DNA of 64,000 nucleotides from Candidatus Hadarchaeales archaeon (GCA_038872135.1 JAVZGN010000002.1:32001-96000); one strand, 5' to 3'. Positions 3,597 through 56,640 are shown, numbered from the stretch's first letter. Notes: a model not told the origin generated them from the letters alone. Made by a program: numbers and translations.

Positions 3597-3605
3597 GGCG
3601 ACAAC

Positions 3606-37757: not shown

Positions 37758-38462
37758 TCAGTGAAACAGTCGATATTCCTTCTGCTTTTTCCCGAGCAGG
37801 AATTGGACTGTTGTCCTGCTCCAATCGTCGATCAGTCCCCCCAGCCCAAGCGCCTCCAGCCTTCTCCTGGATGTTCTTACGACGATGTGCCGGAAAAACA
37901 CTACCTTTCCCTTTCTTGAAATTCTTATGCAAAGATCAAAATCTTCCGATGCCGCCATCTCCTCATCAAAACCTCCAACCTCCATGAACGGCTTTTTCTT
38001 GTAGGCAACGCATGTGCCGGCTAGAACTGGTCTCCCATAGAGAAATGACAACATTATGAGAATGTTAAAAAAGTAAAATACTATCTCAGTTATTACATCT
38101 GTTTTCATTGGCATTATCATCCCGCCGGTGCCGACAACTTCCGGTACCCGCATGTATTTCAATGTTTCATCAACAAACTCCTTCGTGAGTATCGTGTCGG
38201 CGTCCAAGAAGAGAAGAATGTCGCCTTTTGCATTTTTTGCCCCTATATTCCTTGCCGTGGCGATCGTCCCCCGGCTGTAAAAAACTCTCGCATATTTCTT
38301 TGCTATCTCAACTGTCCTGTCTTTAGAGCCGCCGTCAACCACGATGATTTCGGCTTCTGGCGCTGCCTCTCTCGCTTTTACGAGAGTTCGCTCAATCAAT
38401 TTTTCTTCATTCAATGTCGGGATTACTATCGAGATCTTTGGTTTTTCTGGTATCTGGTACAT
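37758..38462 (-). CDS. GT2 glycosyltransferase
   Basis: IPTLNEE, VVDGGSKD, ARNIGA, FLDAD, GGFDE...EDFD, TSRRR. Confidence 0.92.
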   Translation of the reverse strand: MYQIPEKPKISIVIPTLNEEKLIERTLVKAREAAPEAEIIVVDGGSKDRTVEIAKKYARVFYSRGTIATARNIGAKNAKGDILLFLDADTILTKEFVDETLKYMRVPEVVGTGGMIMPMKTDVITEIVFYFFNILIMLSFLYGRPVLAGTCVAYKKKPFMEVGGFDEEMAASEDFDLCIRISRKGKVVFFRHIVVRTSRRRLEALGLGGLIDDWSRTTVQFLLGKKQKEYRLFH

Positions 38463-38512
38463 GAATCAACCCTCACTTCTATACTCTTGAGGCTAAAAAA
38501 TCACTTCGTCGA

Positions 38513-40374: not shown

Positions 40375-40803
40375 ATGAGAAGTGGAGTTTATGTCCTTCT
40401 GATCCACGTCCCCTATTCCTTTTCAACGAAAGTTGGGGAGCTTGGGAACATTGAGTTTGAGCAAGGTTACTATGCATACATTGGCTCCGCGATGGGCGGT
40501 CTGGAGAAAAGAGTTGGGCGGCACATGAAGGGTGAAAAAAAGCTTCACTGGCACATAGACTATCTACTGCTCCACTCCCGCCCAGTGGATGTCTTCATCG
40601 CTGAGACCAACGAGAAGTGCGAGTGTAAAATTGCTGAAGAGCTGTGCAGGAGATTCTCCTCAATCGAGGGATTTGGTTCAAGCGATTGTGGATGCAAAAG
40701 CCATCTGGTTTACTCCAAAGATCCAAATGAACTCACAAAAAGCGTAATCTCCGCTTTCAAGAACGCTGGTCTCAAGCTGGAGAAGAGGGACAGATATGGT
40801 TAA
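40375..40803 (+). CDS. GIY-YIG (DUF123/Uri) family nuclease
   Basis: GVYVL, GYYAYIGSA, KKLHWHIDYL, GFGSSDCGCKSHL. Confidence 0.9.
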   Translation: MRSGVYVLLIHVPYSFSTKVGELGNIEFEQGYYAYIGSAMGGLEKRVGRHMKGEKKLHWHIDYLLLHSRPVDVFIAETNEKCECKIAEELCRRFSSIEGFGSSDCGCKSHLVYSKDPNELTKSVISAFKNAGLKLEKRDRYG

Positions 40804-41407
40804 AAGCAGACGGAAGGACGAAGACGGATACTATAGAATGGCTAAGAAGCTGGGATACCGCTCCCGGGCCGCATTTAAGCTTCTCCAGCTTGATGAACGG
40901 TATTCTTTGATTAAGAAGGGGGATGTCGTTGTAGATCTGGGAGCTGCTCCGGGGGGATGGATGCAGGTTGCCGCGGAGAAGGTTGGAAGCGCCGGCTTTG
41001 TCCTGGGAGTAGATGTGCAGCAGATAGAGAAATTCCCTGAACCAAATGTTGTAACACTCATCGCCGACATAACAAAAGAAAACACTGCTGCTGAGATATT
41101 GAAGATTCTCCCGCGGCAGGCAGATGTTGTTCTTTCAGATGTCTCTCCAAAGATCACCGGGGTGTGGAGCATAGATCATTCAAGGTCAATAGAGCTAACC
41201 AGAGCTTCAGTTGACATTGCAGAAAAAATCCTCGCCCCGGGCGGCAACATCCTCATGAAGGTCTTTCAGGGGGATCTCCTTCAGGATTTCCTGGCGGAGG
41301 TAAAAGAAAAATTCACATTTTTTAAGGCTTCTAAACCGAGAGCTTCAAGAAAAGAGAGCGCAGAGGTTTATTTAATCGGAAAGGGGTTCATTTCAACTAA
41401 TAACTGA
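40796..41407 (+). CDS. rlmE: 23S rRNA Um2552 methyltransferase
   Basis: GYRSRAAFKL, VDLGAAPGGW, LSD..P, KVFQG, KPRASRKESAEVY. Confidence 0.93.
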   Translation: MVKSRRKDEDGYYRMAKKLGYRSRAAFKLLQLDERYSLIKKGDVVVDLGAAPGGWMQVAAEKVGSAGFVLGVDVQQIEKFPEPNVVTLIADITKENTAAEILKILPRQADVVLSDVSPKITGVWSIDHSRSIELTRASVDIAEKILAPGGNILMKVFQGDLLQDFLAEVKEKFTFFKASKPRASRKESAEVYLIGKGFISTNN

Positions 41408-41417
41408 TGAAAAAATT

Positions 41418-42056
41418 TTATTCCTGCTCCCGTTTCAAAGCTTTTGCCACTTCCTCCACAGTTTTCGCCGTCACTGCCGCCAGCTTCCTTTCAAGGCTGT
41501 CAACAAACCTGCTCGCCGGAGCCCCAAGCTGCCAGAGATCGACATAGGCCTGAACTATTGGAACCACACCATTCTCGCTCATCGCCCTCAAGTGCTCGTC
41601 CTGTTCTAGCACAAAGATGTTTCTCTTTTTTGCTCGGCTCGGGCGGAACTTCCTCTCAACCAACTCTGAGTTTGCGTAGACGAAAACCTGGGAGTATTCT
41701 GCTGGTGTTACACCAAAAGTGAACCTGTAGGCGGAATAAGCGGTGAGCTGACCGATTTTTCTCAGCTCCTCCTCAATTTTCTCGACCTTGGCCGGCGAAA
41801 ATGTCGTGTATCTGATATCCTTGCCAAGCTCTCTCGTGGCCGCCCAGTAGAGGAGGAGCCGCTTCGGGTCGACAAGCCTGAAGCCTAGGGGTCGCCTCTC
41901 AACTGCCCCTATCTGTTCAAACTTTATGATGATTGGATTAACTGTCCCCAGCGAGAGGGAGCAGGTTTTAGCGATGCTCTTCTGGTTGAAAAACCTTATG
42001 CCCTGGGAGTAGTACCTATGGAGAATTTCTCTCATCACACGGTCGATTTTTCTCAT
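41418..42056 (-). CDS. wHTH protein resembling type IV TA antitoxin AbiEi; no cognate toxin adjacent
   Basis: N-terminal wHTH (QKSIAKTCSLSLGTVN), LVDPKRLLLYWA, LTAYSA, VFVY, VPIVQAYVDLW motifs of AbiEi-like proteins. Confidence 0.7.
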   Translation of the reverse strand: MRKIDRVMREILHRYYSQGIRFFNQKSIAKTCSLSLGTVNPIIIKFEQIGAVERRPLGFRLVDPKRLLLYWAATRELGKDIRYTTFSPAKVEKIEEELRKIGQLTAYSAYRFTFGVTPAEYSQVFVYANSELVERKFRPSRAKKRNIFVLEQDEHLRAMSENGVVPIVQAYVDLWQLGAPASRFVDSLERKLAAVTAKTVEEVAKALKREQE

Positions 42057-42061
42057 GTTAC

Positions 42062-42108
42062 CGATTATAAGTCACATATTTTATTTATATTTGTTTCGCT
42101 TATAATCG
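42062..42108. promoter_or_regulatory. Bidirectional promoter bracketed by a perfect 10-bp inverted repeat (candidate operator)
   Basis: CGATTATAAG (42062-42071) and CTTATAATCG (42099-42108) flank AT-rich TATTTTATTTATATTT between the divergent genes. Confidence 0.65.
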
Positions 42109-42171
42109 AAACTTTTCCCTAAGGAAAAACCGGCGAAAGTTGAAAGGTGGCATAGGTCTCTTTGAAAAGCT

Positions 42172-45100
42172 ATGGTGGCCACCATAGGCAAATTTAGAGA
42201 TGGGGATTGGCCCCCTGCCAACTATTCTGGGACAGTTGAAGACAGGCGGGGGGCCCACTCTCCCCAATCCCGAATCACTAATGCTAAATTAAATGACGTT
42301 CCTTTATCTGAAAAAGCCCTTTCTATATCCATGGTGATTTTAATTCTCCTCTCAACATTTTCCCCAATGCTTCATCTGCCGCTGGCTTCTGCCGGAAGTC
42401 TAGTCGATAATTCAACGGAAAACTTTGCTCTGGGAGTCCACGAGAACACAGAAAACATCGCAAATAGGATAAGGCTCAAATCTGGGTACACTTCCGGCCA
42501 GTTCACCTCTCAGATTTTCGATGCTGGCGTCTGGGCCCATTGGGAGACCATGAACTGGGTGGAGAACGAGCCATTCCTACTTATCCAAGAGAATGACGAT
42601 GTGGGGGCCGAGCCGGAAACTCTGGCTGACGGAAGTTTGAGAAGAGGAGAGATCCTAGGCGGTTCGATCACAGATGTGAGGGTGTTGGACGGAGTTTATG
42701 AAAACATTGGGGAGAACACCGAGGACAACTGTCTGAATTGGGAACACAAGATCGAGAACATTACCTTCGGCTTTGAGAACTATGTGTTGAAGATCAGGGG
42801 ATACACTGGAGGGGATTATGAGAATGTAGGCATTTACATCTGGGAAAATCAAGGAGCAACATGGGGGTGGAGGTTTATCGACAATTTAACCTCCACCGAA
42901 AAGACAATCGAGTGGACAATTCCCAGAACTTCCATAGAAAATTACTTAGTCAGCGGCGCTATTTTAATCAGATATTTCGAAAACAACACCGATGCCACTC
43001 AGACTTGGGTTGTCGTCGATCTCTGCATCCTCTCTGGGGAGAACAGGATTTTTTCAGAAGTGAAGATTCAGGTTAGGGTTAGCTCAGACAACGTGGTGTG
43101 GACTGGGTGGGCTGGCCCAAGCGGAGACGACACAACATTTTTCACTTCTTCCCCGGCAAATCTCACACCAATTCTCGACAGAAGATATATCCAGTACAGA
43201 GTTTACTTCACCAGTCCCTCTCCATCCCTCAGCGGAGGAGATGGGCCAACTTTCGGTGAGGTGGTGATAAACTACTCCCCGGTCAGCCCACCATCTCTTC
43301 AATCGCCCTCCAATGGCTCCTGGACAAACGACAACACCCCAACATTTGATTGGAGTGATGTAGAGGATGCCACAGAATATCATCTTCTGGTGGACAACGA
43401 CTCCAACTTTTCATCCCCAGAGATAAATGTCTTAGTGGCCTCAAGCCAATTCACCTCAGCCACCGAGCTGCCAGATGCAACATACTACTGGAAGGTCAGA
43501 GCAAAAGTTGGCAGCGACCTCTCAACCGCCTTCTCCGCACCCTGGACGGTCAACATCGCCACAGCTCCACCGACCCCACCATCTCTCATCTCGCCGGACA
43601 ACGATGTTACCCTCTTCGTCGACCAGCCACTCTTCAGATGGACCATCTCAACTGGCGTGGGTGCAATTACCTACTGGCTTGTCATAGACAATGATCAGGA
43701 TTTCTCCTCCCCGATCTACAACAAAACTGGAATCTCGGAGAACTCTCATGTAATTGAAAACAAACTTCCGGAGAACTTCACTCCCTACTACTGGAAGGTT
43801 GCCGCAGTGGACAACATCGGAAACCTGAGCTGGTCTGAGTGGAGGAAGTTTGAACTGAAGGTTTTCCCGTCTTCAGTTGTCGGCCAGATCTCTCCCTACT
43901 GGCAAACAGCGCCTGTAAGCATCTCAGTGACGGCAAGTGACAACGATGGAACAATTGAAAATGTCGAGCTGTGGTACAGGTACTCGGTGGACAACTCTGA
44001 GTGGGGCCCGTGGACCTTTTATGAAAACCGCTCCTCCCCGCCCTACTCCTTTACCTTCAACTTCCCAAATGGCCAGGGCCTTTATGAGTTTTACTCGATA
44101 GCCTGGGACTCTCGCGGGAACCGGGAAAATACCCCGCCGACCCCGGACACTGCCTGTGGATTTGACAACGCTGCCCCGCCCGCCCCAACTCTGATTCAGC
44201 CGGAAAACGATGCTGTGATCGAAACACGGAAACCAACTTTCCGGTGGACCTCTGTGACCGATCTCTCCGGCGTCACCTACAATTTGATTGTGGATAACGA
44301 AAATACTCTAGCTCCCCCACATATTTACTTTAAGACAGGAATAACGGAAAACTCTCACACAACAGAAAACTCTCTCGACATTGGGGTATATTGGTGGAAG
44401 ATTGTAGCGAGGGATGCTGTGGGAAATGAAAATTCTGAGAATGTTTTTATCTTCACGCTTAGACTCTGGAACAACGTTGAGAGATGGTCTGGGGTGATAA
44501 AAACAATTTCTGGGTGGATGACAGCCGAAGTTTGGTCTGTAACAATAAATGCACCTTATGGTGTTTATGGATATCTGCTTGTAGAAGAATGGTCGGCTGT
44601 TGTTAATGCTCCACCACCTGTTTTCACAATTGTAGAGAGCTGGACTACCACTGTTGCTAGTGAAATCTCTGAATGGAAAGTTGTGGAATCATGGACGGCC
44701 AGCATCGGGAGTGGTGGGGGATGGATGCTAGCAGAGAGTTGGATGAGTACAGTGACGGCTCTCCCGCATATTGGGTGGTCGCAGGTTGAAACCTGGAGTT
44801 TCACAGCGGTAACACTTGCAAGATGGGAACTCGTAGAGGGATGGAATGCTTCAATCACGGCTGCTGCGTATCTCGGCTGGCCGCAGGTAGAAATGTGGTC
44901 GGTGACAGTAGATGCCCTCCCCTATGTTGAATGGGTGCAAGCTGAGATCTGGGCGGAAACATTGACAACCTCAGCCCAATGGTTTGTATGTGAGAGCTTC
45001 GCTGCGGATATCGTCGCTAATGTGGTCTCGGGATGGACATTTGTGGAAACTTGGACCCCCACCCTAACCTCGGTAGTGTTGAGTGGATGGACACTGGACG

Positions 45101-48100
45101 AAAGCTGGATTGCTACGATTACCGCGGAGATCCTTCAACCGGTTCTCCTCCTGCCCCTAGACGGGGAGAACACCAACAACACAAACCCAACTTTCGACTG
45201 GGAGGACAACACCCTCCCGATAGACAACTTCGAGATTCAGATAGACGATGACCAGGACTTCTCGCCCCCGCTTGTGAGATGGGAAAACACTGGGGCGACG
45301 AGCCAGTACAGCCCCGGCTTCCTTCCTGATAACCTCTACTGGTGGAGGGTTAGGATGTGGAGGGGAGGGGTGCCGGGGGCCTGGGCTCAGAGAACTGTAA
45401 GAGTTGATACACTGCCACCAGAGAAACCATCTCTCCTCTCCCCCCTAGATGGAGAAAACGAAAATGACAGCGCACCTAATCTCCGGTGGAGCGCCCCGCC
45501 CGAGAACTCCTTCCCGCTCACTTATTTTGTCCAAATCTCCAACTCCAAATACTTCGAGCCGGAAAACATTGCCACAAGCGCTTGGGTGATGGAAGAGAAC
45601 TGGGAGGTGCCACCGGTGCTTCAGGAGAATGTATGGTACTGGTGGAGGGTGCTTGTGAAAGACAATGCTGGAAACACAGGGGACTATTCATCTGCCAGAA
45701 AATTCAAGATAGACACCATAGCACCGCCACCGCCCACCGTCATCTGGCCGGAGAACGACGGGTGGACGACTACCCTGCCGAACCTAGACTGGGCGCCGGT
45801 GGTTGAAAATTCCCTCCCGGTGGTCTACTTCGGAGAAATTTCACTTTTCCCAGACTTCTCCGGCAGCCCGCTCAGAACCATTTCAACGCTGGACGACAAC
45901 TGGAGCGTTTCACCGGAACTCTCAGAGGGCACATACTTCTGGAGGCTTAAGGTCAGGGACAATGCAGGGAACTTGGGAAGCTGGTCGCAGGGATTTGTCT
46001 TCAAAGTTGACAACACGCCACCAACCGCACCACAGCCACCCTTCACGCCACCAAACAACGGCTCAGCGCCCACTGGGTTGGTTCAATTCCAGTGGGCGGC
46101 GGCCTCCGACAGTGGCTCGGGCGTTGCAAAATACGCGATTCAGATAGATGATGAACCTAACTTCAACCCACCGCTTGTGCATGAAAATGACAACGTTGTT
46201 GGAACTGCATACTCTTGCCTACTTGAATTTCCGAAGACATATTACTGGAAGGTAAAAGCCATTGATAACGTTGGCAACGAAGGGGAGTGGTCTGAGACCC
46301 TCAGTTTCTTTGCCACCACCGTCTGGAGGTCCATTGAGAGCTGGACGGGCACAATAGCTACCTCTGCCGCCTATCAACAGGCCGAGTCTTGGGTAGCCAC
46401 CATCATAACTGTTGCTCAGTGGACGCCAATTGAATTTTGTGTAGGAACGATCGCCACCAGCGCTTCCTGGAAGTCTGTTGAGAGCTGGACGGCAACAATA
46501 ACCACTACAGCCACATGGCAGTTTACTGAAACATGGAGTGGTATAATTGCTACCGCAGCTGCTTGGCGGTTTGCTGAGACATGGGCTGGTACAATTGCTA
46601 CTGCTGCTCAGTGGCAGCTAGTTGAATCATGGCAGGTAACCATTACAACATCGGCTCAGTGGCAGGTTGTCGAGAGTTGGACTGGAACGATAACGACTTC
46701 TGCTTCATGGCAGCAGGTTGAATCGTGGACTGCCACAATCGCTACTGCGGCCGTCTGGCAGGTTGTTGAATCCTGGATATGCACGATAAAGGTTGGTGGA
46801 GAATGGAAACTAGCAGAAAGCTGGTCCGTTAATATTGCCCCGCCTGCCGACTGGAACTACATTGAAACTTGGGCGGCAAAAATTATCGCTATCATTCCCG
46901 CTCCAATCCCAGTTTCCCCGCGTAATGGAGAGAACAAAAACACGCTTCCAACCCTCCGCTGGGACAACCTTCTCCCTGCAGACAACTTCCAGCTCCAGAT
47001 AGACAACAACCCAGACTTTTCCTCACCAGAAAACGACCTTACAGTCTTTGAGAACTTCTACACACCGCCAGCCCTCCAAGACAACCTCTGGTACTGGAGA
47101 GTTAGGACATTCAGGAACAACGAGAACTCTGCTTGGTCCACTGTGTGGAAGTTCAGGATCGACAGGCTTGCTCCTGGAAAACCTGTGCTCGTTTCACCGA
47201 GCGATGGGGAGAACATCAACGACAACACTCCACTCTTCCGCTGGCAGGCCCCACCAGAAAACTCCTTCCCGCTCGTCTACACCATCCAGATATCCACAAC
47301 TTCAACATTCGCTCCCGGAACATACAACGAGTTCGCCGTTACCTCTTACGAGCAGGAAGTGGGCTGGATGGTTCCGCAAGAAAACCCCTTGGCCGACAAC
47401 ATCTACTACTGGAGGGTAAAGGCAAGAGACAACGCAGGCAACGAGGGAGCATTCTCTACACCCAGAAAGTTCAGGGTTGACACTGTTTCGCCAGTCATTA
47501 CCCTCATCTCGCCGGCAAACGGTGAAACCGTCAGCTCGAGACCAACTCTGAGCTGGTCCCTCGTTTATGCCGAAAATACCTTGCCCGTCGTCTATAACGC
47601 TTTGATCTCTGACACCAGCACCTTCGAATTCAGCTATGAAAATGTGAAAATAACCGAGAACTCATACACCACCCAGCCACTCGACGAAAGCGTTGGAACA
47701 TATTACTGGAAGGTTTGCGCATGGGACAATGCAGGAAACTGGAGCGGATGGTCCGAGACGAGGTGGTTCACAGTCAGAACTGCGTGGAGACAGGCTGAGA
47801 GCTGGAACCTCATGCTGACTACTTCTAGCCAGTGGAATCTGGCTGAAAGCTGGTCTGCCGCTGCTACGACTTCGGCCGAGTGGAGACAAGTTGAAGCATG
47901 GGGTACAGTGCTCAGTACAACTGCTAAGTGGTCGCAGGTTGAAACATGGCAAGCAACAATGGTCGCTTCTGCTAGCTGGCAACAGGTTGATGGCTGGGCT
48001 GTAACTCTAATAACCGCCGCAAACTGGCTCCTCGCTGAAACATGGCAGGGGATTGCAACGACTACCGCAAAGTGGTTCTCAACAGAATCTTGGACAGGGG

Positions 48101-51100
48101 CAGTAGCCACTGTCTCTATCTGGCAAACTATAGAGAACTGGTGGGCTATGGTAACTGCTCCAGTTTATCATGGATGGATTAACGCTGAAAGTTGGAGCGG
48201 ATACGTATCGTCTGGGGGTGGCTGGGTCCCCGCCGAATTCTGGAGCGCAACTATCGAAGGATGGGCTTTTTGGAAGATTGTTGAAAGCTGGTCAGACACG
48301 ATAAACGCTAGCGCAGGTTGGAAAACCACTGAAACATGGCAAGTTCAAATATACTCGCCAATCCCAGCACCTGTTCTCATCTTCCCGCCAGATGGCTATA
48401 ACTTCAGCCCAAGTGTCGGAGAGCTTGTGCTTAAGTGGGACAACTCGCAGCCGGCAGACAACTTTGAGATTCAAATAGACAACGATTTCGACTTTTCTTC
48501 CCCAGAAGTAGACGATTTCACCTCTACCGAAAACTTTGTGGTCCCGTCCCTGCCTGACAACCTCTACTGGTGGAGAGTAAGGACCTTCAGAACTGGCGAG
48601 AATTCTCAGTGGTCCGAGGTTTGGAGGTTCCGCATCGATAACATTCCCCCAGCTGTTCCTTCCCTCCTCGCTCCTTCAGAAGGGGAGAACATCAACGATA
48701 ACACTCCGCTTCTTAGGTGGCAGGCCCCGCCCGAGAACTCCTTCCCGCTCAGATATAGGGTTCAGGTTGCTACCGACAAATTCTTCACAAACATTGTGAG
48801 GGAGGCTCTCTGGACGGTCACGGCGGAGAACTGGGAGATCCCGGCCGAAAACTCGCTGCCAGACAACATGTACTACTGGAGAGTCGCGGCAAAAGATAAC
48901 GCGGGCAACTACAGCATGTTCTCCTCCTATAGAAGCTTCAGGGTCGACACCCTCAAGCCCGCGGTTCCATCTCTCACTTCTCCACCCCATGGAGCTTGGA
49001 TCGCCTTCCCATCTCTCACGTGGAGCAAAGTAACCGATATCTCTCTCCCGCTTCTCTATAACCTTCAGATAGCCTATGACAACGACTTCTCCCATCTCGT
49101 TGTGAACGTGGAGCTTCTGGATAACTCCTGGAGCGGGCCACTGGATGAGGGGTTATACTGGTGGAAAGTTCAGGCGAAAGATGGAGCCGGCAACCTGAGC
49201 GGATGGTCGGAAAACCGGAAGTTCATCGTTGACAACGCCCCGCCGACAAAGCCGGTTCTCTCTACACCTGAAAACAGCACAGATGTGAATATAGGGACAA
49301 TAACATTTGGATGGCAGGCTTCTGATCCTGGAGCTGGAATTTCAAAATACTGGATTCAGATAGATAATGAACCTGACTTTGATAACACCTTTTTCGTGCA
49401 CGAAAATCAGATGGTCACAGAAAATACCTATCAGTACATCATCTCAGTGAGCGGAAGATATTATTGGAGGGTAAGGGCAATAGACGGGGCTGGAAACATC
49501 GGTGAATGGTCGGACAACTGGAACTTCTTCGTATATGGCTGGAGCTCCATTGAAAGCTGGATGGCAATGATCAGTGGGCCGAGCCAGTGGAGAAATGTTG
49601 AGAGCTGGAATGCAACTATCAAAACTAGGGCTTATATCTGGGAAAAGCTGGAGAACTGGAGCGCCAGCATTCAGGCCCCATTTTTGGCAGGGTGGAGTTT
49701 TGTGGAAAGCTGGCAGGTAGAATTCATTTCCGTTACAGTATCTTGGAGAGGTGTTGAAAGCTGGAGAGCGATTATAACTGGAAGAGTGATTGCTCCGGTA
49801 CTTCTCTCCCCCTCGAATGGCCTGAACACATCTCAGAACCCACTCACATTCAGGTGGGAGAATGTCCATCTCGCTGACAACTACAGGATCCAGATAGATA
49901 ACAAGTCCCCGGTGGTTGCTTACGAAAATGACAATGTGGGGGCCGAGCCGGAAACCCTGGTTGACGGAAGCTTGAGAAGAGGAGAGATCCTAGGCGGCTC
50001 GATCACAGATGTAATGGTTCTGGACGGAGTTTATGAAAATATTGGAGAGAACACCGAGGACAACTGTCTGAATTGGGAACACAAGATCGAGAACATTACC
50101 TCCGGCTTTGAGAACTATGTGTTGAAAATTAAGGGATACACTGAAGGAGACAATGAAAACATCTTTGTGTACATCTGGGAGAATGACTTTGGGACTTGGA
50201 GATGGCGAGAAATTGGAACCATCACCTCAAATGAAACAACAATCGTCTGGGAAATGAAATACACAAACATCGAGAAATATTTGATGGATGGCTCGATTTA
50301 TGTCAGATATCTTGAAAACACTCCAGACTTGGTGCAAACGGTTCTTCACATAGATCTCTGCGTGCTGATGGAAAATCTCGAGAATCTGACTCCACCATTT
50401 TTAGTTGACGCAACGAGCACTGACAACTTCTACACCTACACATTCCCCGAGAATGGGAGATACTGGTGGAGAGTAATGGCAATGGTCCAGGGGATTGTCG
50501 GAGATTGGTCAAACATCTGGACGGTTCGAGCCGATACTGTTGCTCCACAGCCGCCAATCCTGATATCCCCAATCCACCATGAAAATGTTAATGATACTAC
50601 TCCACTTCTCCGCTGGCAGGCCCCGCCCGAGAATTCTCTTCCCGTGAAATTCTTTGTTCAGGTAGCAACCGATCCAACATTCAATACTATCATTAGAGAA
50701 AACTGGGTTGTTGGAGAGCAATGGGAGGTGTATCCGCCACTACAGGAAAATGTTTACTACTGGATGGTGCTTGCGGTTGACAATGCAGGAAATTCCAGTC
50801 CTCCCTCTCCAACCTGGGAGTTTAGGGTTGACATAACATCTCCCGCCACGCCTGAACCCAAAGCCCCCCGTGATGGAGAAAATCTGAATGACAACACCCC
50901 AGAACTAGTGTGGACTAGTGTTTGGGATGATTCTCGGCCAGTAGTCTATCGCATTCAAGTAGCTTATGATGAGGCATTCCAGTTTATGGTTCCTGGATGC
51001 GATGTTTATGTCTATGAAAACACTTGGACAACTCCCGAGCTTCCCAGCGAGAGAGTGTATCGATGGAGAGTCAAGGCCATAGACAATGCTGGAAATGAAA

Positions 51101-53757
51101 GTGGATGGTCTCCAACTCAAAGATTCAGGTTCGACTGCAGCCCGCCACTCCCCCCATCTCTTATCTCCCCAATGCCTGGCGAAAATGTTGGTAGCTCGAC
51201 TCCAACCTTCTCTTGGGCGGCCCCATTCGAAAACTCAACCCCGATAAAATACTATCTTTCCATCAGCGATAATGAAGACTTCCCATACGAGAACGAAAAC
51301 TCTGGATGGATCTCCTCAACTTCTTGGATAGTACAATCTCCTCTCTCAGACGGCATCTGGTACTGGAGGGTGAAGGCAAGAGACAACGCCGGCAACGAGG
51401 GAGCATTCTCTACACCCAGAAAGTTCAGGGTTGATACGCTTCCACCCGAGAATGTTTCTCTGCTGGAGCCGGAAAATGGCACGACGGTAGGTGATAACAC
51501 TCCACTGCTGAAGTGGTCTAGTGCGGTAGACAACTCCCTTCCGGTAAAGTATGTTGTGGTTGTAGCTCGCGACCCCGCCTTCGCAGATAATGTCATCTCC
51601 TCTCCTTGGCTCGACAATGAAAATTGGGAAATCCCACTGGGGCTCTTGGACAACACATACTATTGGAAGGTGAGGGCGAGAGATAACGCAGGAAACATCT
51701 TTGAAACGCCATCTTGGTGGTTCATCGTTGAAAATGCCTCGCCCTTCATGCCACAGCTCGTCAGGCCTGCAAACGGAGCATGGGAAAACGACAACACCCC
51801 GACCTTCAAATGGGAAAACGCATGGGACATTTCACAACCAGTGGAATATTTTGTGTGGCTCTCCACCGACAACCTCTTTGAAAACATTGTACTCACCAGT
51901 GGCTGGGTGGAGAACGAGAACTGGACGGTTCCGGCGGAAAATTCCCTCTCGGATAATGTAAAATATTACTGGAGGGTTCAGGCAAAAGACAACACCGGAA
52001 AGCTCAGCGAGAATTCTGAGACATGGTGGTTCATCGTCGACGTGGTGGTTCCGCCAAGGATAAACCTCTGGTCGCCGCCTAACGACGCCGTCTTCGAGAA
52101 GCTCACGATCACCTTCACTTGGGAAAGTGTGACCGATAATTCTGGAGTAACCTATCACATAGAAATAGATAATGAGCCCAGCTTCTCTAGCCCACTTGTG
52201 GATAGTAGATATACCACCAACGCCGTCCTGCCAAGTTACACCTTCCAAAAAACAGGGTGGTACTACTGGAGGGTAAGGACGATAGACGGAGCTGGAAATA
52301 TCGGTGAATGGTCGGACAACTGGGTGATTTTGATTGGTAGATGGACTTTTCTAGAGCGCTGGAACGAGATAACAATCATTAGCCAGCCCACGGCGTGGAA
52401 ATGGATAGAATCATGGGGATTAACTATAAAGGCTCCAAGCGGCTGGACCTTGGTCGAGAGCTGGCAGGCCACAGCCGTCGGAGCAATCCGATGGAGAGTT
52501 GCCGAAAGCTGGTCACTGAGCATTAGGACTAGGCCCTACTACTGGACTAAGGTTGAGGCATGGGAGAATGTGGCAACATTGAGAGGATACCCGATTCCAG
52601 TTTGGAGATTTGCTGAAAACTGGGGAGGGATATCAATCATTTCTCTCCCACGTGAATTTAGATTTGTTGAAACTTTCAATGCTCAGATAAGGGCTCCGGC
52701 GGAAATAATTGACTTCCTCACCGCCATTGAGCGGCCACCGCCAAAGTGGGAGGAAATAGAGAAGATGCATGCGACCTTTAGGGCAAAAGAGCCGCTGCCA
52801 GGAATCCCTGTGACCGTCGGAAGGGTGATGCCCGGAACTACTTCAACGGCAGATTTTTCCGCCTTCGACATCCCAGTGATCAAGATTGAAATAACTCTTA
52901 AGCCAGACGCCCCTGCCACAGAGATCGCTCCGATCGTCCTCTCAGCCAAGGCCGTTGACAACATCCCAGGAATATCTGGTCCTCCGGGCGAAACATACAA
53001 ATTCTTGGAATTTGGTGTGGATGGGATACCACCGGAATACATTCAGAACTTCAGGGTGCGGTTCAGGGTTGAAAAGAGGTGGCTTCTCGGGATGGATGAG
53101 AAAACTCTCGAGGTGGTGAGGCTGAGCGGCAATTGGGTGCGAGTACCTTTTGAACTAATTAGCTCAACTGAAGATTACAACATATATGAAATGGCTGGCG
53201 ATGTCTATTCGACCTTTGCGATAATAGCGCAGAAAAAGACGCTACCACTTCAAGCCCCGCCGGTCGTCTTGATTCCAACTGGAGAAGCCCCATCCCCAAG
53301 TCCCATTGGATTATTTGTGCTTCTCGGCATAGGCGGGATAGCAGTGGGGCTGATGTTCTATCGTTCTGTCGCGAAAATAAGAATTGGCGGACTTGAGAAA
53401 GAGCTTGAGAAGCTCCAAAAGGCGCCTCCGACAAAAAAGGTGGCGGTGAGAGGTGTAAGGATAACGCTTCCCAAAGTGGAAAAAATGGAGATTAAGAGGA
53501 TTGCCAGAGCGATTTGGGGTCCACCGCCAATCCCGAGAGTTCCTCCGCCTGAAAGACGCCTGGCCCCGCCAGAAATCGCGGCTGTGGAAACTCTCGAGAA
53601 GTTCATCGCTGAAAGGAGAAAGAAGGCGCCGAAAATAGCGGTTGAAAAAATTGAAGAGGTGAGAAAAAAGCTGAGCAAGGAGGAGATTGAGGTTTTCAAG
53701 ACCCTAGAAAAATTTGTTGGAAAGAGAAGGAAAGCCATGAAAAGAGGAGGTGGATGA
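42172..53757 (+). CDS. Giant (~3,800 aa) membrane-anchored cell-surface protein with FN3/Ig-like modules, Trp-rich 16-aa repeats, PGF-pre-PGF-like domain, TM helix and basic cytoplasmic tail
   Basis: Uninterrupted ORF; signal-like KALSISMVILILLSTF...ASA; about 21 modules of P.L.SP.NG...W...Y...D...F...YYWRV.A.DNAGN; FRVEKRW...YSTFAII then TM IGLFVLLGIGGIAVGLMF; start uncertain (42172 or 42331). Confidence 0.9.
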   Translation: MVATIGKFRDGDWPPANYSGTVEDRRGAHSPQSRITNAKLNDVPLSEKALSISMVILILLSTFSPMLHLPLASAGSLVDNSTENFALGVHENTENIANRIRLKSGYTSGQFTSQIFDAGVWAHWETMNWVENEPFLLIQENDDVGAEPETLADGSLRRGEILGGSITDVRVLDGVYENIGENTEDNCLNWEHKIENITFGFENYVLKIRGYTGGDYENVGIYIWENQGATWGWRFIDNLTSTEKTIEWTIPRTSIENYLVSGAILIRYFENNTDATQTWVVVDLCILSGENRIFSEVKIQVRVSSDNVVWTGWAGPSGDDTTFFTSSPANLTPILDRRYIQYRVYFTSPSPSLSGGDGPTFGEVVINYSPVSPPSLQSPSNGSWTNDNTPTFDWSDVEDATEYHLLVDNDSNFSSPEINVLVASSQFTSATELPDATYYWKVRAKVGSDLSTAFSAPWTVNIATAPPTPPSLISPDNDVTLFVDQPLFRWTISTGVGAITYWLVIDNDQDFSSPIYNKTGISENSHVIENKLPENFTPYYWKVAAVDNIGNLSWSEWRKFELKVFPSSVVGQISPYWQTAPVSISVTASDNDGTIENVELWYRYSVDNSEWGPWTFYENRSSPPYSFTFNFPNGQGLYEFYSIAWDSRGNRENTPPTPDTACGFDNAAPPAPTLIQPENDAVIETRKPTFRWTSVTDLSGVTYNLIVDNENTLAPPHIYFKTGITENSHTTENSLDIGVYWWKIVARDAVGNENSENVFIFTLRLWNNVERWSGVIKTISGWMTAEVWSVTINAPYGVYGYLLVEEWSAVVNAPPPVFTIVESWTTTVASEISEWKVVESWTASIGSGGGWMLAESWMSTVTALPHIGWSQVETWSFTAVTLARWELVEGWNASITAAAYLGWPQVEMWSVTVDALPYVEWVQAEIWAETLTTSAQWFVCESFAADIVANVVSGWTFVETWTPTLTSVVLSGWTLDESWIATITAEILQPVLLLPLDGENTNNTNPTFDWEDNTLPIDNFEIQIDDDQDFSPPLVRWENTGATSQYSPGFLPDNLYWWRVRMWRGGVPGAWAQRTVRVDTLPPEKPSLLSPLDGENENDSAPNLRWSAPPENSFPLTYFVQISNSKYFEPENIATSAWVMEENWEVPPVLQENVWYWWRVLVKDNAGNTGDYSSARKFKIDTIAPPPPTVIWPENDGWTTTLPNLDWAPVVENSLPVVYFGEISLFPDFSGSPLRTISTLDDNWSVSPELSEGTYFWRLKVRDNAGNLGSWSQGFVFKVDNTPPTAPQPPFTPPNNGSAPTGLVQFQWAAASDSGSGVAKYAIQIDDEPNFNPPLVHENDNVVGTAYSCLLEFPKTYYWKVKAIDNVGNEGEWSETLSFFATTVWRSIESWTGTIATSAAYQQAESWVATIITVAQWTPIEFCVGTIATSASWKSVESWTATITTTATWQFTETWSGIIATAAAWRFAETWAGTIATAAQWQLVESWQVTITTSAQWQVVESWTGTITTSASWQQVESWTATIATAAVWQVVESWICTIKVGGEWKLAESWSVNIAPPADWNYIETWAAKIIAIIPAPIPVSPRNGENKNTLPTLRWDNLLPADNFQLQIDNNPDFSSPENDLTVFENFYTPPALQDNLWYWRVRTFRNNENSAWSTVWKFRIDRLAPGKPVLVSPSDGENINDNTPLFRWQAPPENSFPLVYTIQISTTSTFAPGTYNEFAVTSYEQEVGWMVPQENPLADNIYYWRVKARDNAGNEGAFSTPRKFRVDTVSPVITLISPANGETVSSRPTLSWSLVYAENTLPVVYNALISDTSTFEFSYENVKITENSYTTQPLDESVGTYYWKVCAWDNAGNWSGWSETRWFTVRTAWRQAESWNLMLTTSSQWNLAESWSAAATTSAEWRQVEAWGTVLSTTAKWSQVETWQATMVASASWQQVDGWAVTLITAANWLLAETWQGIATTTAKWFSTESWTGAVATVSIWQTIENWWAMVTAPVYHGWINAESWSGYVSSGGGWVPAEFWSATIEGWAFWKIVESWSDTINASAGWKTTETWQVQIYSPIPAPVLIFPPDGYNFSPSVGELVLKWDNSQPADNFEIQIDNDFDFSSPEVDDFTSTENFVVPSLPDNLYWWRVRTFRTGENSQWSEVWRFRIDNIPPAVPSLLAPSEGENINDNTPLLRWQAPPENSFPLRYRVQVATDKFFTNIVREALWTVTAENWEIPAENSLPDNMYYWRVAAKDNAGNYSMFSSYRSFRVDTLKPAVPSLTSPPHGAWIAFPSLTWSKVTDISLPLLYNLQIAYDNDFSHLVVNVELLDNSWSGPLDEGLYWWKVQAKDGAGNLSGWSENRKFIVDNAPPTKPVLSTPENSTDVNIGTITFGWQASDPGAGISKYWIQIDNEPDFDNTFFVHENQMVTENTYQYIISVSGRYYWRVRAIDGAGNIGEWSDNWNFFVYGWSSIESWMAMISGPSQWRNVESWNATIKTRAYIWEKLENWSASIQAPFLAGWSFVESWQVEFISVTVSWRGVESWRAIITGRVIAPVLLSPSNGLNTSQNPLTFRWENVHLADNYRIQIDNKSPVVAYENDNVGAEPETLVDGSLRRGEILGGSITDVMVLDGVYENIGENTEDNCLNWEHKIENITSGFENYVLKIKGYTEGDNENIFVYIWENDFGTWRWREIGTITSNETTIVWEMKYTNIEKYLMDGSIYVRYLENTPDLVQTVLHIDLCVLMENLENLTPPFLVDATSTDNFYTYTFPENGRYWWRVMAMVQGIVGDWSNIWTVRADTVAPQPPILISPIHHENVNDTTPLLRWQAPPENSLPVKFFVQVATDPTFNTIIRENWVVGEQWEVYPPLQENVYYWMVLAVDNAGNSSPPSPTWEFRVDITSPATPEPKAPRDGENLNDNTPELVWTSVWDDSRPVVYRIQVAYDEAFQFMVPGCDVYVYENTWTTPELPSERVYRWRVKAIDNAGNESGWSPTQRFRFDCSPPLPPSLISPMPGENVGSSTPTFSWAAPFENSTPIKYYLSISDNEDFPYENENSGWISSTSWIVQSPLSDGIWYWRVKARDNAGNEGAFSTPRKFRVDTLPPENVSLLEPENGTTVGDNTPLLKWSSAVDNSLPVKYVVVVARDPAFADNVISSPWLDNENWEIPLGLLDNTYYWKVRARDNAGNIFETPSWWFIVENASPFMPQLVRPANGAWENDNTPTFKWENAWDISQPVEYFVWLSTDNLFENIVLTSGWVENENWTVPAENSLSDNVKYYWRVQAKDNTGKLSENSETWWFIVDVVVPPRINLWSPPNDAVFEKLTITFTWESVTDNSGVTYHIEIDNEPSFSSPLVDSRYTTNAVLPSYTFQKTGWYYWRVRTIDGAGNIGEWSDNWVILIGRWTFLERWNEITIISQPTAWKWIESWGLTIKAPSGWTLVESWQATAVGAIRWRVAESWSLSIRTRPYYWTKVEAWENVATLRGYPIPVWRFAENWGGISIISLPREFRFVETFNAQIRAPAEIIDFLTAIERPPPKWEEIEKMHATFRAKEPLPGIPVTVGRVMPGTTSTADFSAFDIPVIKIEITLKPDAPATEIAPIVLSAKAVDNIPGISGPPGETYKFLEFGVDGIPPEYIQNFRVRFRVEKRWLLGMDEKTLEVVRLSGNWVRVPFELISSTEDYNIYEMAGDVYSTFAIIAQKKTLPLQAPPVVLIPTGEAPSPSPIGLFVLLGIGGIAVGLMFYRSVAKIRIGGLEKELEKLQKAPPTKKVAVRGVRITLPKVEKMEIKRIARAIWGPPPIPRVPPPERRLAPPEIAAVETLEKFIAERRKKAPKIAVEKIEEVRKKLSKEEIEVFKTLEKFVGKRRKAMKRGGG
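42589..43044 (+). repeat. Duplicated ~150-aa domain, copy 1 (copy 2 at 49924-50376)
   Basis: END.VGAEPETL.DGSLRRGEILGGSITDV.VLDGVYENIGENTEDNCLNWEHKIENIT nearly identical at DNA level over the first ~260 nt. Confidence 0.9.
44464..45129 (+). repeat. Trp repeat block 1 (13 copies, 16-19 aa)
   Basis: WNNVERW..., WKVVESW..., WTLDESW... Confidence 0.85.
46321..46890 (+). repeat. Trp repeat block 2 (12 copies, strict 16 aa / 48 nt)
   Basis: e.g. WQVVESWTGTITTSAS WQQVESWTATIATAAV. Confidence 0.9.
47782..48357 (+). repeat. Trp repeat block 3 (12 copies)
   Basis: WRQAESWNLMLTTSSQ WNLAESWSAAATTSAE... Confidence 0.9.
49537..49782 (+). repeat. Trp repeat block 4 (5 copies)
   Basis: WSSIESW..., WRNVESW..., WRGVESW... 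Confidence 0.85.
49924..50376 (+). repeat. Duplicated ~150-aa domain, copy 2
   Basis: Same sequence as 42589-43044, inserted within an FN3-like module. Confidence 0.9.
52339..52695 (+). repeat. Trp repeat block 5 (7 copies)
   Basis: WTFLERW..., WKWIESW..., WRFAENW..., FRFVETF. Confidence 0.8.
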
Positions 53758-54400
53758 GGTGGAGCCAGAATTTCGCCTGACGAGGGCGGGAAAAATTAAA
53801 TGGAAGCTGAAGAAAAACTGGAAAGTTATCGCGGCAATTATTCTATCTATATCAATAGCGGTGGGAGTTTATCTCTCAACCCTCCAGCCATCCAAGATTT
53901 CCAGAAGAGCTAAGATTACTGCTCCCTATGTTGAATTTGAAAGTAGAAGGGGGTTCTTTGCCGTGCGTAAATACCAGGAGTCTGGAATCGAAAACATTTA
54001 CATCGTTAAATTTCCCAATTTTGACCCGACCAGGGATGCGATGTCTCAGCTGGAAAATGTTGATGCAATCATTTCGAGTAGCGGGCAAACTGTGGATGTT
54101 TCGGACAATGCCCTTTTTGCTATAGTTGTGGCCGTTAGAGCAAAGGCTCCAGACAACATCGCATATGTGGTCAAAGAGAATATGTGGGTCTGGCTCGGGG
54201 CTAGTGGAGCATTCACCATCCCGAACTCTCTGGCTCCAGACTGGAAAGAATATGTTTTTGAGAGTTCTGGATATGGAACTGCGAATGGTTACATGAGAGT
54301 AAATGTGATCTGGGACAACGATGGCGAGGGATATATACTGTACGCAGGGCAACATCTCTTCATAGACAACATCGTCTTGAAATTTTTCAGTCCAAGATAG
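53750..54400 (+). CDS. Hypothetical membrane-anchored protein (N-terminal TM, beta-rich external domain)
   Basis: Basic N-terminus, TM VIAAIILSISIAVGVYL; start overlaps the end of the giant gene by 8 nt; GGAGG RBS. Confidence 0.8.
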   Translation: MDEVEPEFRLTRAGKIKWKLKKNWKVIAAIILSISIAVGVYLSTLQPSKISRRAKITAPYVEFESRRGFFAVRKYQESGIENIYIVKFPNFDPTRDAMSQLENVDAIISSSGQTVDVSDNALFAIVVAVRAKAPDNIAYVVKENMWVWLGASGAFTIPNSLAPDWKEYVFESSGYGTANGYMRVNVIWDNDGEGYILYAGQHLFIDNIVLKFFSPR

Positions 54401-54463
54401 AAATTTCATAGCTTATAACCTCGGCCGCAATTAGAAAAGTGAGATAACTTGGCGGACCGAAAG

Positions 54464-55246
54464 ATGAAACAACCTTCAATACCTGAACTTTTGAGACCGA
54501 AGCGAGAAAGGGGAATAGAAATAAAACCGAAACATGGGAGAGTGGTTGGGCTTTTTTCCTGCAAGGGAGGTGTTGGAAAGACTACCACCACGGCAAATCT
54601 CAGTCTCGCCCTTTTGGAAAAACTTGGAACGAATATCTTGGCTTTCGACGCAAACATCGGTGCCCCTAACCTTGGACTGCATTTTGGCGAGCTAACTCCA
54701 AAAATAACAGTTCATGATGTCATCTCCGCGGAGCTTCCGGTGGAAAATGCTATTCTCACAGTTCAGGGGTTGAAGATGATTTTGGGATCGATAGCCTTTG
54801 AAGATGAAGTTCACCTGGTAGATCTCAGGGAGCTGATAAACCCCTTGAGAAAGATGTTCAAACTTGTCATCGTCGACTCTGCCCCGGGGATAGGAAGCGA
54901 GGTGGTCGCCGCCCTGAAGGCCTGTGACGAGATAATAATTGTCACGGACCCATATGTCCCAACGATCGCAAGCACATTGAAGACATTTCGGGCAGCAGAA
55001 AAATATAAGGTTCCAATCTTCGGTGTTGTTGTGAACAGGGTGGCGGGGGACCCGTTTGAGCTTCCGATCAAAGAAATAAGAAAGGCATTAGGGTGGCCTG
55101 TGGTGGCGGTGGTCCCGGAAGACAAGAAAGTGAGGGAAGCAACTGCTGCCGGCATCCCTGTAGTAAAATATGCGCCGAAGTCGCCGGCCGCCAAAGAGTT
55201 TGTTATGCTGGCGAACACTGTGTATGAACATCTCAGAAAGGGGTAG
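54464..55246 (+). CDS. minD: MinD/ParA family ATPase
   Basis: Deviant Walker A KGGVGKTTTTANL, DANIGAPNL, DSAPG, VVVNRV, VPED..VREA...G.PVV...P.SPAA; start 54464 or 54449. Confidence 0.88.
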   Translation: MKQPSIPELLRPKRERGIEIKPKHGRVVGLFSCKGGVGKTTTTANLSLALLEKLGTNILAFDANIGAPNLGLHFGELTPKITVHDVISAELPVENAILTVQGLKMILGSIAFEDEVHLVDLRELINPLRKMFKLVIVDSAPGIGSEVVAALKACDEIIIVTDPYVPTIASTLKTFRAAEKYKVPIFGVVVNRVAGDPFELPIKEIRKALGWPVVAVVPEDKKVREATAAGIPVVKYAPKSPAAKEFVMLANTVYEHLRKG

Positions 55247-55252
55247 CCGGCG

Positions 55253-56563
55253 TCACATGAACTCAAGGATTTTCTTCTGTGCTATTTCCTCTCTGATGAG
55301 CCTGCTGGCTGAAACCCACCTCTCCAGCGGCAATGTCAGCTTTTGAACAGCGTAATTTAAGGCCTCGCGAAATGTCGGAAAAGTCGAAGGCTGTGTGCGG
55401 AGCATTGCCCTGACAGACTCCCTTGTGAACCAAACGCCAAGAGGCAGGAGAAACCCAGGGTGAATTTCTCTGATGACAAGCGCTCCTGCCTGCCTTTTTT
55501 CCTCCCTCAGCTTTTCTGCCACCGCCAACCTGCATGCATAGTAACACCCCCCTATCTCTGGGTAGGTTGTCCTCCCCTGATATGGTTCCCAGTCGCCCAT
55601 GACGGCAGGTGAAGTGGCTGATCTCTGGTTCCAAGTGGTGTTTGGAAACCATGCTTCAATCCACTCAAACCTCCAATTTTCTGGCATCAGGATGGCCGCA
55701 AAGAGATTATTCATTCTCTGAAAGGTATATACTCTGAACTCGTTTATCGATGGAAATTGCTTTATTTCATCTATTAGTCTCTGTGAAATTATAGAATCCA
55801 CAGCAGTTATGCTCCAGCGGGTGGGCACCAGCCTCCTTCTGTTCCCCTCTCCAAACATTCCAAGGCTGAACGCTTTTTGGATTTTGGAAACCATGGTACC
55901 TAAGTTGTAAAGCTCTAGAACAGCGTCTGCGGCCTTTAAATCCTTATCATAAAATGCTTTCTCTATTCTTGGGTCTGCTTTGATGTTTGTGGCGGAAAAA
56001 CTCTTGAGTGGTGCCGATGGGCCAAAGGGCTGAACATCGTCACTGAAAATCAATCGGGGTGAAGGAATTTTTTCCAAAACTACCTCGGCGTCAATTGGGT
56101 GTTTTCCCATCGCCAGCTCCTGAAGGGCTTCAATATTTTTCCCACTGTTTGCTGCCTCATGGACATCAGCAGTAACTTTCCCCCTGATCAAGGAATACCT
56201 GAAATCGACAATCTCTTGGATTGTCTTGTCTCCCCATGCTTCCGGAGTATCGAGAATTTCTGTATCGCCGCGAAATGGGGGAACCATTGGCCCAACGCTC
56301 ACCCTTGGATAGCCTATCCTTCCCACAAAAACTGCTGGTGGACTTGAACCAAAGATGTAAGCTGATGTTATGAGGGGTTTTACTTTCGCGAGCGATTGGG
56401 CCCTTATGAGAACTGGACATCTCCGCCTGCCGCAGAGCATCCTGCTTCCCCTGCAGATGATGCAGAGGTTTTGTTGAGTAGCCCTTCCCGGGTACCTGCT
56501 TTGAATTGAAAGTTCTCTCAAAAAATTGTCGGGAACTATTCCTCTAAGCCACTCTGTTGCCAT
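55253..56563 (-). CDS. nreA: Nre family PCNA-interacting DNA repair protein
   Basis: CIICRG...CG...CP, GSSPPAVFVGR.GYP, LVPTRWSITAVD, GGCYYA.RLAV.E, C-terminal PIP QKKILEF; start ATG 56563. Confidence 0.9.
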   Translation of the reverse strand: MATEWLRGIVPDNFLRELSIQSRYPGRATQQNLCIICRGSRMLCGRRRCPVLIRAQSLAKVKPLITSAYIFGSSPPAVFVGRIGYPRVSVGPMVPPFRGDTEILDTPEAWGDKTIQEIVDFRYSLIRGKVTADVHEAANSGKNIEALQELAMGKHPIDAEVVLEKIPSPRLIFSDDVQPFGPSAPLKSFSATNIKADPRIEKAFYDKDLKAADAVLELYNLGTMVSKIQKAFSLGMFGEGNRRRLVPTRWSITAVDSIISQRLIDEIKQFPSINEFRVYTFQRMNNLFAAILMPENWRFEWIEAWFPNTTWNQRSATSPAVMGDWEPYQGRTTYPEIGGCYYACRLAVAEKLREEKRQAGALVIREIHPGFLLPLGVWFTRESVRAMLRTQPSTFPTFREALNYAVQKLTLPLERWVSASRLIREEIAQKKILEFM

Positions 56564-56640
56564 CGGATAACCATTCCTTTTAGAGAAATAAAGTTGGAGG
56601 TTCCCAAATGGTTTAATGTTTACAAACGATGGAAGTTTGT

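Follow-up and report, generated by a model that had tools for sequence, protein, structure and literature searches.

A putative two-part module in Hadarchaeales: a MinD-type ATPase encoded beside giant surface proteins with a conserved basic tail

Bacterial ATPases of the ParA/MinD family, among them FlhG, TadZ/CpaE and BcsQ, place envelope machines through a partner. To our knowledge, archaea have no MinE. The activating partners of ParA/MinD ATPases act via short positively charged peptides, whose Arg or Lys residues are essential for contact with the ATPase dimer, according to the available part of one report (PMC7993993). In Haloferax the function of MinD4 and MinD2 depends on partner proteins (10.1101/2020.04.03.021790; PMC11588486), and the available part of the second study describes those of MinD2 as still unidentified. 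Here we analysed a 64,000-nucleotide stretch of DNA (the window; GCA_038872135.1 JAVZGN010000002.1:32001-96000) from a Candidatus Hadarchaeales archaeon, in which a MinD-type ATPase gene lies close to a gene for a giant surface protein with a long basic tail. The window belongs to contig C2 of an archaeal genome of 1.08 Mb that is 91% complete. Whole or partial copies of the stretch were present in 8 sequencing runs from 3 studies, all of hot-spring DNA, and no RNA run was listed among them.

We propose, with a probability of about 0.5, that the tail of the surface protein and the MinD-type ATPase form a Hadarchaeales-specific two-part core, in which the tail would bind and activate MinD and MinD would position the surface protein. 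Such a tail-MinD module is a variant of the known theme of a ParA/MinD ATPase with a peptide-bearing partner. It resembles these bacterial and Haloferax ATPases in that an ATPase with a deviant Walker A motif is encoded beside, or acts on, a surface structure. It differs from them in that the proposed partner is the cargo's own cytoplasmic tail, and in that the locus carries no archaellum, pilus or chemotaxis genes in a Pfam scan that included 8 flanking open reading frames (ORFs). The parts of the locus on which the proposal rests are the following.

42172-53757, plus strand: giant surface-protein gene, 3,861 amino acids, no internal stop (ORF)
52822-53229, plus strand: PGF_pre_PGF domain, membrane-proximal stalk, residues ~3551-3686 of the giant protein (TIGR04213)
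53296-53373, plus strand: C-terminal transmembrane helix, residues 3709-3734 (mean hydropathy 2.27; aligns with the helices of orthologues)
53374-53754, plus strand: basic tail, predicted to be cytoplasmic, 127-132 residues (conserved across 16 tails)
53572-53625, plus strand: tail motif copy 1, residues 3801-3818, proposed MinD-binding helix (regular-expression match; profile 63.6 bits)
53683-53733, plus strand: tail motif copy 2, residues 3838-3854 (regular-expression match; profile 26 bits)
54449-55246, plus strand: MinD-type ATPase gene (ORF; 265 amino acids from TTG 54449, 260 from ATG 54464)

The C-terminal fragment of the giant protein matched the PGF_pre_PGF model TIGR04213 with 44.8 bits (E 1.2e-11, cut-off 28; 45.3 bits in the search of the whole genome), and this domain is followed by a Pro-rich linker and then by the hydrophobic helix. 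The same domain, linker and helix are found in euryarchaeal surface proteins of the PGF_pre_PGF/PGF-CTERM type. The PGF_pre_PGF proteins of haloarchaea and methanogens carry a short PGF-CTERM signal, whereas the tailed proteins considered here have the helix and a tail of 50-170 residues with the motif described below, and no short sorting signal. No PGF-CTERM model was listed for the giant C-terminal fragment at E<=1, and its layout is not that of an archaeosortase substrate, since 127-132 residues follow the helix instead of a few basic ones. The tail measures 127 residues after the helix window and 132 by the count of an earlier note made from the DNA alone, hereafter the sequence-only reading. 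Its claim of a basic cytoplasmic tail of about 130 residues is borne out by length and by charge (37 Lys and Arg vs 17 Asp and Glu), and the topology, with the stalk outside and the tail inside, is a prediction.

The tail contains two copies of the motif E-L-x-A-V/L-x-x-L-E-K/R-F/I-x-x-E-R-R-K, with a wider consensus of (R/K)L(A/S/T)(K/R)PE(L/R)(A/V)A(L/V)(E/K)xLE(R/K)(F/I)(I/M)RERR(K/R). When 16 tails from three families were aligned, the motif block was the best conserved part, and copy 2 was the most amphipathic stretch of the giant's tail (hydrophobic moment 0.58). Comparison of 24 distinct instances in the loci fetched from relatives showed an invariant Leu and nearly invariant Glu, Ala and Arg-Arg. 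The regular expression matched twice in the six-frame ORFs of the organism's own genome (763,577 residues), both times in the tail of the giant protein, and the motif profile matched 14 of the 65 genomes of the order. A search of 185,579 species genomes, with a pattern built from 6 close motif windows, returned 46 matches, of which 5 were confirmed, all 5 in Hadarchaeota; the pattern was strict, so that divergent variants outside Hadarchaeota could be missed.

The ATPase has the deviant Walker A sequence CKGGVGKTT with the signature lysine, invariant in 19 orthologues, and scored over the Pfam cut-offs for ParA (E 6.7e-19) as well as for CbiA (E 2.4e-18). The 19 orthologues have a mean column identity of 69% and share a conserved basic N-terminal extension, and all of them end just after the last core helix, without a C-terminal membrane-targeting extension. 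Bacterial MinD and Haloferax MinD4 require such a sequence, as stated in the available part of the MinD4 study (10.1101/2020.04.03.021790), and the MinD of the window differs from MinD4 in having none. In a tree of MinD sequences the window's type formed one clade (20 rows, support 83/87). A type represented on contig C1 of the same genome formed another (4 rows, 100/100), and the loci of relatives with this C1-type MinD carry a different, ISLxRLK-like tail motif.

Relatives of the giant's C-terminal fragment were detected in 43 of the 65 genomes, and the window's MinD type in 35. When loci were sampled from the surface protein, a MinD gene was present within a 1.5-kb flank in 22 of the best 30 C-terminal-domain loci; 17 of these MinD genes had 59-100% identity to that of the window and 5 had 42-50%. 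Sampling was also done from MinD, so that the loci were not picked by the feature counted. In this set of 30 loci a tailed protein, defined as an ORF that ends within 700 nucleotides and whose product has a membrane helix and a tail of net positive charge, was present in 18 and in the window itself, and 2 loci were unsure. All 14 motif-bearing genomes were among the 35 with the window's MinD type. In family f4 neither the motif nor the MinD type was found (0 of 9 genomes for each), and genome G003, of the same genus as the window and 95% complete, had no match for the C-terminal domain, the MinD type, the motif or the 216-residue membrane protein that is encoded between the giant protein and MinD in the window. 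The compared genomes are kin, so these counts overstate independence.

Similar associations were observed elsewhere in the organism's own genome. Five of its PGF_pre_PGF proteins over the cut-off are complete at the C-terminus, and two of them, the giant protein and a 234-residue protein on contig C3, have long basic tails; they lie 695 and 352 nucleotides, respectively, from a MinD paralogue. The other three have tails of 4, 5 and 23 residues and no MinD-like gene within 30 kb or on the contig. The region C3:63483-66017 repeats the layout of the window in miniature: a paralogue of the window's 212-residue regulator is divergent from the 234-residue gene, which is followed by a gene for a winged-helix-like protein of 99 residues and by a MinD paralogue with 53% identity to the window's MinD. 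In the 234-residue protein a signal peptide precedes the PGF_pre_PGF domain (60.5 bits), and a membrane helix and a basic tail of 49 residues come after it. In a third place, C1:79132-81284, a MinD paralogue is flanked by a regulator paralogue and a gene for a DUF835 protein (57 bits), all three in one direction, and this MinD (47% identity) has a Lys/Arg-rich C-terminal tail of its own. The sequence-only reading had coupled the giant's tail to MinD, and this coupling gains comparative support from the adjacency kept through rearrangement, the tail motif, the co-occurrence, the paralogous modules and the missing anchor of MinD, all of which suggest a functional link.

Several observations weigh against the proposal. 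The MinD-first sample contained 9 loci of 30 with no tailed neighbour, and in 4 of these the stretch measured less than 2.5 kb. One genus and one family (3 of 3 genomes) had MinD and a motif-bearing giant on separate contigs, or a MinD with no tailed neighbour. The pair is co-directional in the window and convergent in most genera, and so is not co-transcribed there; in the window, a TATA-like element suggests that MinD may have its own promoter. Adjacency among kin can be inherited synteny, and a basic tail is expected anyway on the inner side of a membrane anchor. With the archaeal MinD model TIGR01969 the ATPase scored 187.3 bits (E 2.7e-55) against a cut-off of 201.75; the shortfall comes from the final 20 positions of the model, which it lacks (it covers 1-231 of 251). 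Homology of the motif to MinE was considered and rejected, since it did not rise above background. With both BLASTP and hhalign, the tail aligned best to the contact helix of E. coli MinE (residues 16-44). The BLASTP values were E 0.03-0.2 for single pairs, and hhalign, used with a narrow MinE alignment (Enterobacterales only, >=85% identity to E. coli MinE), gave a probability of 1.2% and E 0.046. A scan of the 7,603 ORFs of the own genome with E. coli MinE, whole or as residues 10-35, did not place the tail among its best-ranked matches. The Pfam family MinE (PF03776) had no match in two tails at E<=10, and no member of it was found in the own genome, where the best score was 15.6 bits against a cut-off of 25, on contig C11 and outside the tail. 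The weak scores and the outcome of the genome scan make the likeness to MinE an analogy at most.

The mostly convergent orientation, the possible MinD promoter, the unlinked pairs and the close kinship of the genomes would also fit two neighbours that make no contact. In that case MinD would serve another cargo, the gene order would be inherited, and the tail would be a positive-inside anchor with a lineage-specific helix of other function. We consider this unlikely. The adjacency has been kept through several arrangements and in three paralogous MinD lineages, the motif and the MinD type co-occur in 14 of 14 genomes, only the long-tailed PGF_pre_PGF proteins adjoin MinD in the own genome, and MinD itself lacks a membrane anchor. 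The same adjacency and motif could instead reflect a MinD that acts as a biogenesis factor, binding the tail during or after translation and aiding the insertion, export or turnover of huge anchored proteins. The gene pair exists for a protein of 234 residues as well as for one of 3,861. We know of no member of the MinD family that acts in this way, which speaks against such a role. Since the giant protein has a predicted N-terminal export signal, its C-terminal helix would act as a stop-transfer sequence and no targeting factor would be needed. A biogenesis role is improbable in our estimation.

The remaining features of the locus, including the regulator and the 216-residue protein, are as follows.

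40796-41407, plus strand: FtsJ/RlmE methyltransferase gene, flank (Pfam scan)
41418-42056, minus strand: 212-residue regulator gene (ORF)
42057-42171, no strand: divergent intergenic region with A/T-rich TATA-like elements (read from the sequence; putative promoter region)
42099-42105: TATA-like CTTATAA before the giant gene, the same heptamer as before MinD (read from the sequence)
42316-42390, plus strand: N-terminal hydrophobic helix of the giant protein, residues 49-73 (hydropathy scan; predicted signal peptide or signal anchor)
53745-53752, plus strand: Shine-Dalgarno-like AGGAGGTG, perfect, in the last codons of the giant gene (read from the sequence; putative function)
53750-54400, plus strand: 216-residue membrane-protein gene (ORF; alternative start 53759, 213 residues)
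54411-54417, plus strand: TATA-like CTTATAA before MinD (read from the sequence; possible own promoter)
55253-56905, minus strand: Nre protein gene, flank (Pfam scan)
C3:65382-66017: regulator paralogue
C1:79132-79770: regulator paralogue

The 212-residue protein was modelled with a mean predicted local distance difference test (pLDDT) score of 92 as a winged helix (residues 1-75) followed by an alpha/beta C-terminal domain. A VIA fold search matched it to the DNA-binding domains of Crp/Fnr proteins with Z 12.0 and a root-mean-square deviation of 1.8 over 73 residues, and Pfam returned weak HTH_Crp_2 and MarR matches. The sequence-only reading had named it AbiEi-like, a name that stands as a lead only. 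The entry 6y8q, a solved AbiEi chain, was at Foldseek rank 12 (E 0.025) and AbiEi_2 clusters scored 0.94 in a language-model atlas; AbiEi was absent from the best 50 VIA rows. We rejected an AbiEi antitoxin as a candidate: four orthologues had no Pfam AbiEi match at E<=1, and the gene is flanked by rlmE and the giant gene instead of an AbiEii nucleotidyltransferase.

Each of the three MinD paralogues of the own genome has a paralogue of the 212-residue regulator beside it or across the operon, and the centromere-binding protein AspA was among the fold matches of the winged helix-turn-helix (wHTH) domain (Z 9.0-9.1). With these two points one can construct a ParA-like tether, in which MinD would contact DNA through the wHTH protein, an adaptor similar to SegB or ParB, and the tail would link the envelope to the nucleoid or to a plasmid-like element. 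However, the fold match is one to generic winged helices, and in the relatives' loci the regulator goes with the 216-residue/S26 genes (7 of 15) and with MinD in only 1 of 15. We regard a tether as very improbable.

The four genes of the locus are not one conserved unit, as the sequence-only reading had supposed. All four kinds were together in 1 of 15 loci of relatives (L037, with another MinD paralogue), and in family f2 the pair of MinD and tailed giant lies about 50 kb from the pair of regulator and 216-residue protein. The locus looks like two separable modules that are often, and not always, neighbours: MinD with the tailed protein, and the regulator with the 216-residue protein. The second would probably serve the processing or anchoring of surface proteins and transcriptional control, with a pair of S26 peptidases added in relatives. 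A proposal of a regulated, positioned surface system thereby survives in its link between tail and MinD, and loses both the four-gene unit and the filament, which had been part of the original idea and for which we found no support.

Structure prediction (pLDDT 86.5) indicated that the 216-residue protein is a type II membrane protein with a basic N-terminus, a membrane helix at residues 23-47, a short strand at 54-57, a floppy linker and a beta-sandwich at 79-212. It had no match to a Pfam or NCBIfam family. A search of 5.8 billion proteins returned only 11 relatives, those with a name being from Hadarchaeales, and by this distribution the protein is an orphan family confined to Hadarchaeota. 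Of 61 genomes, 31 had a relative and often two paralogues; one of the paralogue types has a cytoplasmic zinc ribbon before the helix. The fold search gave generic Ig- or CBM-like domains, the best with a VIA Z of 5.6; Foldseek had no match in the PDB at E<=0.001 and the language-model atlas none at >=0.9. Two candidate identities gained no support: an Spc3-like subunit of the signal-peptidase complex, of which there was none among the best 50 fold rows and no Pfam match, and a TasA/AbpA fold, for which neither a Pfam Peptidase_M73 (PF12389) match nor a TasA or AbpA among the VIA rows listed was found. A further paralogue overlaps a surface-protein gene of 925 codons just beyond the window.

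The gene set on which the sequence-only reading was built had missed S26 signal-peptidase-like genes, which lie behind the 216-residue family in 13 of 15 fetched loci. Four were tested with the Pfam model (PF10502, cut-off 22.9 bits); two scored 23.5 and 26.0 bits, one 18.9 bits and one had no match. The low-scoring genes have W-D-M-G where the others have S-S-M-E, a position that we take to be the serine nucleophile motif of S26. In relatives these genes are paired, one with the serine motif and one without. The locus in the window has no S26 gene beside the 216-residue gene. Elsewhere in the genome, C9:237-2536 contains two tandem S26-like genes, one with G-N-S-M-K-P-T and the other with N-W-E-M-T-P-T in place of the serine motif, followed by a zinc-ribbon paralogue of the 216-residue protein and a membrane protein of 168 residues, next to a Trm1-like gene that was named by its likeness to the Trm1 of relatives; the contig begins 236 nucleotides before the S26-like pair. 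We also noted an S26-type signal peptidase of 202 residues at 59349-59957 (plus strand), which has a longer insert, is distinct from the cluster-linked paralogues and is probably a housekeeping enzyme.

The combination of an S26-type peptidase, small secreted beta-sandwich proteins and a wHTH regulator resembles tapA-sipW-tasA loci and the loci of archaeal bundling pili, as the latter are presented in the available part of the AbpA study (PMC9245690). The modelled layout of the 216-residue protein (N-terminal strand, floppy linker, beta-sandwich) is also the one given there for AbpA monomers. This raises the idea of a fibre of TasA/SipW or bundling-pilus type, in which the 216-residue protein would be a donor-strand subunit freed by S26, the giant protein would be its anchor or tip adhesin, and MinD would place the site of assembly. 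The S26-like genes behind the family, two of four tested being over the Pfam cut-off, and the existence of a separate housekeeping-type S26 gene are in keeping with it. Against it, neither sequence nor fold searches matched TasA, AbpA or TapA (Foldseek at E<=0.001; VIA rows listed), the zinc ribbon before the helix in many paralogues is odd for a cleaved signal peptide, and the window's locus has no S26 gene. The loci also differ from those of tapA-sipW-tasA and the bundling pili in that the presumed nucleophile serine is absent from one of the two S26 paralogues. We give such a fibre little chance.

Other arrangements around the second module were observed in relatives. In a sister species of the same genus (G001, locus L043, 1-5114), rlmE adjoins the regulator as in the window, and beyond the regulator, where the window has the giant and MinD genes, there are a 216-residue gene with an internal TAA, S26-like genes and a zinc-ribbon paralogue. 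In L034:3-6626 (G012), L035:2-4399 (G019) and L042:1-2556 (G043), a very large protein is encoded beside 216-residue, S26 and MinD genes; by eye its C-terminal part resembles a P-loop ATPase of HerA/FtsK type. These three loci also encode a coiled-coil protein with a weak MCPsignal match below the cut-off.

The predicted extracellular part of the giant protein consists of many Ig/Fn3-like domains, with Pfam matches to Ig_Rha78A_N (E 3.3e-48, 7 stretches) and Big_13 (E 4.8e-36), and of five arrays of an uncatalogued 16-residue Trp repeat between them. This organization is like that of fibrillar adhesins, which are also giant single ORFs of many Ig/Fn3-like repeats with interspersed novel modules and an anchor at one end. 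The giant protein differs from them in being archaeal, in its five Trp-repeat arrays and in a long conserved tail coupled to an ATPase gene. It also contains two nearly identical copies of a domain of ~150 residues without a family, encoded at 42589-43047 and ~49923-50379, one near the N-terminus and the other inserted late.

The four genes lie between rlmE and nreA where the sequence-only reading had placed them, and our ORF calls agree with it. It had also described them as inserted there. Three genomes of the same genus have Nre without rlmE, regulator or MinD within 1.5 kb, a comparison (n=3) that neither supports nor refutes an insertion; in other relatives the cluster likewise adjoins rlmE. 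For the 216-residue gene, GTG 53750 gives the proposed 8-nucleotide overlap with the giant gene. Another possible start is GTG 53759, which is one base past the giant's TGA (53755-53757), is used in the public entry of the protein (213 residues), and lies 6 nucleotides behind the perfect AGGAGGTG, a spacing that suggests re-initiation on this gene. The giant and 216-residue genes are tightly coupled with either start. The distance to MinD, put at about 60 nucleotides, is 48 from TTG 54449 or 63 from ATG 54464. A TATA-like sequence had been noted near 54412, and CTTATAA was found at 54411-54417, 32 nucleotides upstream of the TTG. The sequence-only reading was also right that the locus is free of pilin ATPase, TadC and archaellum genes: a Pfam scan of the four locus genes and the 8 flanking ORFs found none of these families. 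Two glycosyltransferase genes (GT2; GT4/GT1) lie 2-4 kb upstream of the locus (37758-39670, minus strand) and may encode enzymes of surface-protein glycosylation.

Our proposal, a tail and a MinD that work together, could operate as follows. After export, the C-terminal helix would keep the giant protein in the membrane, with the stalk of Ig-like domains and Trp repeats pointing outward in the manner of a fibrillar adhesin and the basic tail of 127-132 residues in the cytoplasm. MinD has the dimer-forming Walker A lysine. Since it has no membrane-targeting helix, it would be unable to reach the membrane alone, and its ATP-bound dimer would be recruited there by the one or two conserved amphipathic basic helices of the tail. 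The tail would be a landmark or an ATPase-activating partner, as the peptides of MinE, ParB and PomX are for their ATPases, and MinD would then cluster, space or localise the surface protein. The tail shares with those peptides the character of a short conserved basic helix. It differs from them in that its motif sits C-terminally in a membrane protein instead of N-terminally in a soluble one, in that it is present in one or two copies, and in that no homology was detectable (hhalign probability 1.2%). It is possible, though on present evidence somewhat doubtful, that the conserved tail helix is the first recognisable archaeal MinD partner or activating peptide, built into the cargo itself, by which an anchor-less MinD is recruited and patterns that cargo over the cell envelope, with three paralogous pairs in a genome of 1.1 Mb as a small set of orthogonal systems for positioning surface proteins.

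Archaeal MinD paralogues are common, and the available part of the Haloferax study lists no partner that holds up (PMC11588486). In the literature, with supplements outside the search, we found nothing that links MinD to PGF_pre_PGF or giant surface proteins, or that deals with Hadarchaeota surface proteins. Since a short, synthesisable motif in the tail of a defined cargo is paired here with a dedicated MinD, the proposal can be tested with two recombinant components. The locus also brings into view a surface-protein toolkit found across Hadarchaeota, with the long-tailed PGF_pre_PGF anchor, the orphan membrane family with its beta-sandwich, and S26 peptidases in pairs of an active-looking and an inactive member. 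If the proposal is true, the rule of short basic peptides as drivers of ParA/MinD ATPases would gain a case in which the cargo itself bears the peptide, and the module would show how a cell places or spaces giant adhesin-like proteins from the inside.

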